DNA of 64,000 nucleotides from Fibrobacteria bacterium. GTDB lineage: Bacteria; Fibrobacterota; Fibrobacteria; UBA11236. Shown one piece after another: positions 27,001 through 30,000 of this stretch (position 1 is its first letter; every line of letters begins with the position of its first letter). A program made the position numbers. The stretch covers positions 29,297 to 93,296 of the forward strand of contig JBGTHM010000037.1 in the NCBI GenBank assembly GCA_041746255.1. Reading direction: 5' to 3'.

Positions 27001-30000
27001 CCGCTTTCTGGTTTGCATGCCGGGAATCGATTTTATCGGCGTCAGCAAAAAGAGCCGCGATCCCCAGCATCGACGGCAGCTCAAGAAGATGATCCGCGAG
27101 CTGAAATCCCCCGAATGCGGTTATATCGTCCGTACCATCGGTTTGAACGAAAGTGAGAGCGAATTCGCCAAGCAGATGAAGCTGCTCGAAGCCAAATGGG
27201 AACTTACCAAGGAGCAAGCCAAAAGAGTGGCCGCCCCGGGTCTGGTCCATCAGGAAAGCGACTCCAGCGAAATCACCATGCGGGACTATTTCTCCGAAGA
27301 CGTTGACGCGGTTTATATCGACGATAAGGACGAATATAAGACCGTGGTAACCTACCTCAAGGTGCTTTCCCCCGATCTCGTGGATCGAGTCAAGCCCTAT
27401 AACGGTGAAGCCTCGTTATTTGATTATTTCGGCATTGAAGAGGAATTGGAAAAGACCTTCGCCCGCAAAGTGCCCCTCAAGCGGGGCGGGTACCTCATCA
27501 TCGACCAGGCCGAGGCGCTGGTGGCGGTGGATGTCAATACCGGCGGCAAGGTTCGCGGTACCAACCAAGCCAAGAATATCATCGAGACCAATATCGATTC
27601 GGCCTGGGAACTTGCCAAACAGATGCGCCTCCGCGATTTGGGAGGCCTAATTGTCGTGGACTTCATCGACATGGAGTCTCAAGAGGATCAAGACACGGTG
27701 GTGCGCGAGTTCAAAAAGGCGATTCGCATCGACAAAGCGCCCATCAGCTTCTCCACGCTTTCGCAATTCGGGTTGATGGAAATGACGCGCAAGCGCGTAC
27801 GGCCCAATGCGGTCAAGGAACAATCGCTCGAATGCCCCACCTGCAAAGGTGCAGGGTATATTCCCTCTCGCGAATCCGTGGTTTCGGGCATTGACCGTTG
27901 GCTTACCCGCTTCCATTCGAAAAAAGGCGAAAGCCGCGTAACCTTGGCTCTGCACCCCGACATGATAGCCCATGTGCTCGAAAACCGGGCAGGTATTTTC
28001 AAGTACTGGGAAAGAGTGCACAAAGTGAAAATCCAGTTGGTGGAGGACGACAATTCGAATTTTTCCGAATTCCGGTTTTTCTCAGGGTCTTCCGGTGACG
28101 AGATTACCCATATCCATGCCGTGTGAGCCCTGTGGGGCTTGGGCAATGGGCCTTGCGCCCGCTTCCGCCCGGTAATATATTTTTGGCTTTGCGAAAGTGG
28201 CGGAATTGGTAGACGCGCTAGATTTAGGATCTAGTTTTTTGGGGGTTCAACTCCCCCCTTTCGCACATTGAGTTCCTACGGTCGAAGCGACGAAAAGGAA
28301 GATACAGAAAGGACATTGGTGAAAACGACTTTAAACGAACCCAGCAGCACGGAAAGGGTTCTGGAAATTGAAATTCCGCGCGAACGCTATGACCGGATCT
28401 TCAATGAGAAGGTCAAAAAATACGGCAAGGAACTGAAGCTGAACGGCTTCCGGGCGGGAAACATACCCAAACAAGTGGTGGTCAGCCGCTTCGGCCAGCC
28501 CATCGCTTCCGAATCGCTGGAGGCTCTGGTCGAAGAAGTCCTGCGTGAAGCCTGCAAAGAGCATAACATCGAACCCGTGGCTCCCGGGAAAATTGAAAAA
28601 TTGGAGAACGAACCCGATAAGCCTATTTTCGTCAAGGCCGTGCTCGAGGTCGATCCCCAAGTGGATATTCAGGGATACCCGATTGAGATTTCCCTTCCGG
28701 AAACCGAAGTGCCCGACGAGGTGGTCGAAGATCAGGTTAAACGCCTGCAAAAACGTCTTTCCGAGGAGAGCCGGGTGGAGCGCGCGGCTGTACCGGGCGA
28801 CGTAGTGGTGGCGGAATATCTGACCGTGATCATCGATGGTGAAATCCAGCCGCTTCCGCAAAATAAGGAATTCCGGGCCGAATTGGGTGGGGGGAGCCTT
28901 CCCGAGTTGGATCGCCAATTAGAAGGCGTCACGGCTGGGGAGGAGCGGGATGTCCGACTGGATTTTCCGGAAGATTATCCGCAGGCCAATATGGCGGGAA
29001 AATCCACTCAATATCGGCTGTTGATTAAGGAAGTCAATGAGCAGAAGCTACCCGAATTGAATGACGCCTTCGCCGATAAACTGGGATTCACCGATTTGGA
29101 AGGCTTACGCGCGAAAATCCGGGCCGACCTCAAAGCCCAGGCCTTGGATCAGGCCAAGGAAGGCGCCTATGAGCAGGCTATACAAAAGCTCATCGCGGCA
29201 AATCCCTTCGACGTGCCCAAGGCGCGCCTAAACAATTACGTGCATTACCGCATGGAGCAAATGGGTCAGCAGCATGCGCATGATCACGACGAGCATGGAG
29301 GTCATGTGCATCCTCCGGAGCTCGATAAGGAAGCGGAATATACCCTTAAGCGTTACCGTATCCTGGACGAAATCGCCCGTAAGGAAAAAATCAAAGCCTT
29401 GCCCGAAGAGGTGGACGAAAGGGTGCATGAATTGGCGGCCCAATATGGCACCGATTTCGAAACCTTGAAGGCCGCCTTGCGCAAAAACGGAAAGATCAAT
29501 GATTTGCGCCACGACATCAAGACGCGCAAGACGCTCGACTTCGTGATAGGCATGCAGCCGGTCACCGCATAAGGGCGCAAAATGTATATTAAATCGAATT
29601 CCAACCTTTAACCTGGGTTCCGTCGCATATGCTGATACCAACCGTTATCGAAACCACAGGACGCTCCGAGCGCGTCTATGACATCTATTCGAGACTCCTG
29701 CGCGAGCGCATCGTTTTTCTGGGTTCGGAAATCAACGATGCCGTGGCCAACACTGTCGTGGCCCAGATGTTGTTTCTCGAGTACGAAGATCCCGATAAAG
29801 ATATCCTGATATACATCAACAGTCCGGGCGGCGTGGTGACATCGGGTCTGGCGATTTTCGACGTCATCAAATACGTGAAGCCCGACGTGCAAACCATTTG
29901 CGTGGGATCCGCCTTCAGCATGGGGGCCCTGCTCCTGGCCGCCGGAACCAAGGGCAAACGCTTCATCTTGCCCCACGGCAAGGTGATGTTGCATCAGCCC

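Follow-up and report, generated by a model that had tools for sequence, protein, structure and literature searches.

A housekeeping tRNA-Leu(UAG) without a variable arm at the tig locus in a genus of Fibrobacteria

In this study, which was based on a draft genome of a Fibrobacteria bacterium and on comparative genomics, we describe a gene for tRNA-Leu(UAG) in which six unpaired U residues stand where the relatives carry a variable arm. It is very probably the ordinary tRNA-Leu(UAG) of the tig locus, whose arm has collapsed and which is charged with leucine by the single LeuRS and decodes CUA. Within the window, i.e., the whole stretch of 64,000 nt that was analysed, ARAGORN called a tRNA-Leu(TAG) at 28191-28266 on the forward strand, where Rfam RF00005 gave a score of 61.9 bits; the gene has 73 nt to the discriminator and the CCA is not encoded. 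The acceptor stem has 7 bp, the T stem is G5/C5, and the anticodon arm combines a perfect 5-bp stem with a 7-nt loop, U33-UAG-G37 (anticodon at 28225-28227, +, in agreement between sequence, ARAGORN and fold). The Leu-type D arm (28200-28216, +) has a 3-bp stem with G13.A22, A14, A15, G18G19, U20 and A20a, and the discriminator is A73 (28265, +), so that the claim of an earlier note on this DNA that the leucine D loop and A73 had been kept is borne out. Judged against the elements given in the available part of PMC9976931, the leucine core (A14, A15:U48, G18G19, A20a, the 3-bp D stem and A73) is complete, with the pairing predicted from the sequence. The variable region (28235-28240, +; sequence and alignment) consists of six unpaired U at positions 44-48, which is one nucleotide more than the standard class I loop; it replaces the 11-17 nt arm of the relatives, and A15 is a possible partner of its last U. 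A type II variable region, taken as more than 10 nt forming a stem-loop, is absent, while the 6 nt compare with a minimum of at least 5 nt, position 48 included, reported for type I tRNA-Leu in the available part of PMC6614811. The minimum free energy fold was cloverleaf-like with an uninformative z of -1.8.

The gene is the single tRNA between rng and tig and lies directly before tig, with no tRNA array or mobile element. Its upstream neighbour encodes an Rne/Rng family ribonuclease (26534-28126, +), and the conserved downstream neighbour, which encodes the trigger factor (tig, 28319-29572, +), is followed by clpP (29629-30225) and clpX (30228-31484). The gene is presumably expressed. A promoter-like hexamer pair, 17 nt apart, which the alignment indicates to be kept in the sister species, was recognised at 28153-28181 (+), with 8 of 12 matches to the consensus, i.e., below the scan threshold; the promoter and terminator scan around the gene flagged nothing. 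Farther upstream, at 19650-26177 of the window, an ORF of 1922 aa, which we take to be similar to an SprA-type outer-membrane protein, is followed by an ORF of 228 aa that resembles its continuation, and the two are possibly products of a split or a frameshift.

The gene is the only CUA-reading tRNA found in the source genome (G000), as had been claimed earlier. It is the sole TAG tRNA among 46 ARAGORN calls, and a loose pattern applied to G000 and to the sister species G001 gave no second UAG tRNA: one of the four matches in G000 and the one match in G001 (1/1) were tRNA-like with UAG, and each was the armless gene. A low-threshold ARAGORN run with introns on G000 returned only noise. The other four tRNA-Leu of G000 are armed, with 85-87 nt. 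G001 has the identical gene up to and including A73, but diverged flanks (the surroundings are 81% identical); this rules out an assembly slip and points to selection. The form is common to both members of the genus, and the description “fixed in the genus” in the earlier note has to be read for a sample of two genomes.

The single detection could also mean that the armless gene is weak or decaying and that the reading of CUA falls to an armed UAG tRNA which the assembly lacks. G000 is a draft of 130 contigs (4.6 Mb, 53% G+C) and it lacks tRNA-Ser(GGA), which is present in 4/4 relatives tested (G001, G003, G012 and G025), even though TCC makes up 49% of its TCN codons; this tRNA is probably unassembled, which means that the assembly does drop tRNA genes. 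We nevertheless regard a hidden armed copy as quite improbable. Two separate assemblies show only the armless gene, it occupies the UAG locus of the relatives, its stems are perfect, and it is fully conserved amid diverged flanks; moreover, the chromosome-level G297 and G298 are examples of genomes in which the sole UAG gene found is a short one. A contig that is identical over 28206-28800, with 29 letters left of the loop where bridging requires 31, comes from a sequencing run that is possibly the source of the assembly; it is non-independent and was left out of the support. Among the remaining tRNAs of G000, tRNA-Leu(CAG) (G000:C34:35735-35820) has A33 in place of the near-invariant U33, which is found in G001 and G012; this is either a private mutation or an assembly error, and, if real, a larger share of CUG may fall on the armless UAG tRNA. 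The ARAGORN calls of a 93-nt tRNA-Pro with CGG (G000:C125:73942-74034) and an 84-nt tRNA-Thr with CGT (C97:70384-70467) have the look of false positives.

A search of 41 genomes for orthologues matched 37, and the best 30 loci were parsed. In 30/30 of these tig adjoins the tRNA, and the variable region has 6 nt (two loci), 11 nt (18), 12 nt (one), 13 nt (five), 14 nt (one), 15 nt (one) or 17 nt (two). Among the other loci of the same family, 16 of 18 have an 11-nt region (15 of 17 without one locus from the unpublished genome G021) and two have 17 nt; the 11-nt arm is a 2-bp stem with a tetraloop. Because most family relatives have 11 nt, and because G003, which has the 11-nt arm, is the sister of G000 and G001 in a LeuRS tree (support 96/97), the step was one from a mini-arm, not from a long arm, to a loop. 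Of the earlier picture, in which a 5-nt U run had replaced the long arm of a family counterpart, the U run without a stem and the correspondence itself stand, the latter through the tig locus and a core with 3-6 differences in 69 positions. The run, however, has six U, and the counterpart is not long-armed. In the phylum as a whole, a UAG tRNA match was obtained in 263 of 296 genomes, with 11-14 nt in all of the 150 matches listed of 281. A pattern for variable regions of 3-10 nt matched only G000, G001 and G139 among the 296 genomes, and the match in G139 was rejected since its anticodon stem is unpaired. Strict D-arm patterns overlook variants (6/27 by pattern compared with 24/27 by BLAST in the family of G296), and short-armed genes could therefore be concealed in the 33 of 296 genomes that gave no UAG match. 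With the loop set aside, the core differs from those of phylum relatives at a minimum of 3 and a median of 6 of 69 positions. The gene is the housekeeping orthologue of the tig locus, and its arm was lost in place; a 2-bp mini-hairpin such as the relatives have would have turned, in the ancestor of the genus, into an unpaired loop of six U.

There is a slim chance that a phage or a tRNA array was instead the donor of the armless form, which would have replaced the gene at the tig locus or entered it through gene conversion. UAG tRNAs that lack the arm and have U-rich loops abound elsewhere, and the earlier remark that such Leu-type genes are not rare proved right: a short-loop Leu(NAG) pattern found at least 120 loci in viral contigs, where of those listed all have A73 and 113/120 a 5-nt loop, and a UAG-only pattern found at least 118 loci in GTDB genomes. 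Among the matches listed, 80 GTDB loci had long flanks; a short tRNA-Leu(TAG) was called in 73 of them, of which 64 lie in tRNA arrays (at least 4 tRNAs). The anticodon arm of the present gene is, furthermore, found in some phage copies as well. The body of the tRNA, however, differs from the armed relatives at 3-6 positions and from the short-loop tRNAs among the matches listed at no fewer than 14 (viral), 13 (GTDB, leaving out L257, which is identical and was not counted as independent) or 12 (metagenome) of 69. The best INPHARED matches are armed and 76-81% identical, tig lies directly downstream, and the loop has 6 nt as against 5 nt in most of the viral matches listed. A short conversion tract limited to the loop may be a variant of such an import. 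Among the matches listed, 153 distinct tRNA-Leu with a 5-nt loop have U48 in 153/153 and A15:U48 in 152/152 parsed. A singleton short-loop locus (L268) adjoins a phage terminase gene. Among the GTDB loci L157-L271, many Chryseobacterium genomes have a tRNA array of up to ~17 genes that includes a short tRNA-Leu(UAG); these arrays also hold 83-nt genes called as tRNA-Cys(GCA), which is unusually long for Cys. In metagenomes, a pattern near the body of this tRNA found 0 loci, and a looser pattern yielded 20, whose loops measure 5, 6, 9 and 10 nt and whose bodies all differ from this one. The 9- and 10-nt variable regions among these (L405-L424) form one base pair with a small loop, two of the loci are beside tig, and they are natural intermediates of arm shrinkage.

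The meaning of CUA was examined in alignments to G000, with CTA masked, of proteins taken from 1.2 Mb (of 1.6 Mb) of G025 and 0.4 Mb (of 3.75 Mb) of G012. In columns of conserved context, CTA faces Leu in 128/199 (G025) and 79/107 cases (G012), or 207/306 when pooled, while the other Leu codons do so in 69-71% (G025) and 69-79% (G012); an earlier, smaller alignment run gave 59% of 132 columns. The log-likelihood of the pooled CTA residue profile is -430 for Leu and -735 for the next best amino acid, Met. CUA is read as Leu in G000, as was previously stated, with low-level ambiguity being invisible to an alignment of this kind, and the cognate codon is not aligned to another amino acid as that of a recoding tRNA would be. 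The crude gene set contains 7166 CTA codons, not the 7375 given before, in 2734 of 3614 genes. No avoidance of CTA is evident (the A-ending share is 7.7% in the CTN box and 8-28% in the other boxes), and the use of CTA per locus resembles that of the armed relatives in small samples. The tRNA would decode CUA and, by wobble, CUG. These data bear on the very improbable reading in which the class I shape leads to charging by a synthetase of the Ile, Val, Met or Phe type, so that CUA is recoded or ambiguous. The class-I-like size occurs together with A73 and A35, and the share of Leu against G025 is slightly lower for CTA (64% compared with 69-71%); against G012, however, it is 74% and lies within the range of the other codons, in the residue profile Leu leads the next best amino acid by 305 log units, and the Leu identity elements are intact.

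It is likewise highly improbable that selection favoured the U run for a regulatory role, with the anticodon hairpin and the six U acting as a weak intrinsic terminator or pause that tunes read-through into tig-clpP-clpX. The hairpin has 8 pairs and -7.0 kcal/mol with U residues directly after it, and the six U are kept in two species even though the genome has 53% G+C; still, the terminator scan was empty, termination at this point would truncate an essential tRNA, and armless tRNA-Leu normally have a U-rich loop whatever the context. An assembly artefact at the homopolymer, suggested by the T6 run adjoining a G5 run in a draft, is exceedingly unlikely given the identical loop in a second species with diverged surroundings and the A, C and G of the armed form, which a homopolymer collapse cannot remove.

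As a housekeeping tRNA with a collapsed arm, the molecule would retain the core of the long-arm type that is read by bacterial LeuRS, i.e., U8:A14, A15:U48, G18/G19 with the T loop, A20a and A73, and the six U would serve as an unpaired spacer that keeps U48 available to A15. Leucylation by the ordinary single LeuRS would then proceed via A73, U8:A14 and the D/T elbow. This agrees with the available part of PMC9976931, according to which A73, A15:U48, G18G19 and A20a (the elbow) are needed for leucylation in E. coli and the arm is not. The LeuRS of G000 (L311) is single, full-length and intact, and scores over the TIGR00396 cut-off. It lacks the leucine-specific domain (LSD), as do all 20/20 LeuRS of the order (families f1-f3; L311 and L312-L330), in which a four-residue linker, GEDG, stands before KMSKS; in 4/4 LeuRS examined from other orders of the class, an LSD of ~34 residues is kept. 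The linker resembles the GKDG of Mycoplasma mobile LeuRS. Replacement of the E. coli LSD by a tetrapeptide kept activity and abolished the discrimination between two tRNA-Leu that differ in the arm loop and at position 20, with D falling from 5.5 to 0.92 (both from the available part of PMC3643597). The four-residue linker probably removed one check of arm size and may have helped to permit the loss. Absence of the LSD can be at most a permissive factor, as the comparisons suggest. It is not a sufficient cause, because the whole order is LSD-less and yet an arm of 11-17 nt is present in all its other members whose tRNA was parsed, and it is not a necessary one, because G298 and G299 combine short UAG tRNAs with a full-size insertion. 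The LSD is shortened in the armless G296 and G314 relative to the armed G326. The C-terminal GKVR motif is kept; it is equated by motif only with E. coli K809/R811, residues that contact the backbone of the variable arm (PMC12360207, as far as its text was available). Co-evolution of the LeuRS within the genus was unsupported: only 4 columns that are otherwise conserved carry a change specific to the genus, and the private changes (7 and 4) are not in excess of the range of 0-29 in the others. The LeuRS of G298, G299 and G331 have a degenerate KMSKS motif.

The closest known system is that of Streptomyces coelicolor. In this species, Fan et al. (2019; PMC6614811, here and below in its available part) described a single LeuRS together with four type II isoacceptors and one type I tRNA-Leu(CAA), the latter with the loop ACAGC. 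The type I tRNA is charged, with a kcat/Km of 6.25 compared with 14.2, and attempts to delete it failed. The authors found that S. coelicolor tRNA-Leu mutants without any base pairs in the arm were still active, with a minimum loop of 5 nt, and that the 3' identity element of the type I tRNA is C74 rather than A73. The LeuRS of E. coli was unable to charge it, the ability being mapped to the LSD, and grafting the short loop on a type II body reduced the efficiency to 14%. This failure and the graft show that the charging of an armless tRNA is not automatic; the LSD mechanism of Streptomyces, in turn, cannot apply here, since this LeuRS has no LSD. Both genes are chromosomal, the only one for their anticodon (here in drafts with one known missing tRNA), short-looped and accompanied by four armed isoacceptors and one LeuRS. 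They differ in the anticodon (UAG, not CAA) and in the loop, which has six U, with U48 facing A15, as against ACAGC ending in C48. The present gene is derived in place from a mini-arm, whereas an ancient relic was proposed for S. coelicolor, and charging, demonstrated there by assay, is predicted here.

Other systems share single features with the present tRNA. The short-loop tRNA-Leu of phages and arrays have the Leu-type D arm, A15:U48, A73 and a U-rich short loop in common with it; the present gene differs as a housekeeping gene with an unrelated sequence and a 6-nt loop. Short-loop copies were described, in the available parts of the respective papers, for tRNA-Leu(TAG) in mycobacterial clusters, where they are extras beside an armed gene (PMC6582537), for cyanobacterial tRNA-Leu, with loops of 5-7 nt (PMC6933170), and for tRNA arrays (PMC8421152). 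With the canonical type II tRNA-Leu(UAG) of E. coli and the rest of the phylum it shares the core, the discriminator and the anticodon, and, within the phylum, the tig locus; it differs in having no variable stem, so that the K809/R811 contacts seen in E. coli cannot form. Against the proposed charging, the LeuRS of M. tuberculosis has been reported to read the variable arm (PMC3561953, available part). Animal mitochondrial tRNA-Leu is also armless and is read through A73 and A14, as described in the same portion of PMC9976931; the present one differs in coming from a genome of free-living size (4.6 Mb) with four armed isoacceptors on the same enzyme. That 2023 review states, in the portion available, that only the tRNA-Leu of animal mitochondria lacks a long arm. 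A literature search whose coverage of subscription papers was incomplete gave no publication describing an armless tRNA-Leu(UAG) with a housekeeping role.

Belief and doubt are about evenly balanced for a broader proposal, namely that arm loss in place in the housekeeping tRNA-Leu(UAG) occurred in at least three independent cases, each with tig-linked copies, and yielded a hybrid structural type that retains the core of the long-arm type with an invariant A15:U48, is distinct from the CAA tRNA of Streptomyces and is charged by bacterial LeuRS without an LSD. The three proposed lineages are this genus, a whole Abditibacteriota family and a reduced alphaproteobacterial lineage. BLAST matched 24 of the 27 genomes in the family to which G296 belongs (record titles Abditibacteriota and Abditibacterium), and the tRNA-Leu(UAG) has 73-77 nt in 24/24 of these (L475-L497, L291), 10 of them beside tig; the D arm is remodelled (C13.A22) in many. 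Two class members outside the family have an 85-nt tRNA-Leu(UAG), one beside tig, and the family is a larger, older case of the same arm loss. The short UAG gene is the only UAG tRNA found in the chromosome-level G297 and in G314, while G296 has a second short UAG copy in a small array. In G298, a 524-kb chromosome of an alphaproteobacterial endosymbiont, the CAG and UAG tRNAs are both short, tandem and near-identical, directly upstream of tig (G298:C1:94900-95120; L402:4916-5122); in its order, 12 genomes had a UAG match, of which 2 are short and 10 armed.

A sole, essential and charged armless bacterial tRNA-Leu is already known from S. coelicolor (CAA), and that one tested bacterial exception to the armed tRNA-Leu was tied to a special synthetase domain (both from the same part of PMC6614811). 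What is new is an apparently essential armless tRNA together with an LSD-less LeuRS, and the recurrence: at least three lineages, of which the Abditibacteriota family and not this genus is the largest, have lost the arm of this isoacceptor. If the proposal is true, recurrent loss would overturn the LSD-dependent model as well as the claim of the review that the arm is universal except in animal mitochondria, and it would provide a natural series of 17, 13, 11, 6 and 5 nt for testing the purpose of the arm. The close relatives, in which a nearly identical body bears an arm much as in the ancestor, make it testable why the arm is retained if LeuRS does not need it. A possible use is the design of compact leucine tRNAs. 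The genetic code is unchanged by the armless tRNA-Leu(UAG), and the case is not unique.

A pattern search found no CAG or GAG tRNA-Leu in G296 and G297. In G296, G301, G308 and G310 (L474:1480-1625, -; L506, L507 and L508), a tRNA-Leu-like body was observed in which a conserved insert of roughly 50-60 nt replaces the anticodon loop. Such insert-bearing bodies are possibly interrupted tRNAs of an intron-like kind or a tRNA-like RNA. Similar inserts recur near the body in these genomes, where Rfam gives long tRNA matches of 117-127 nt.
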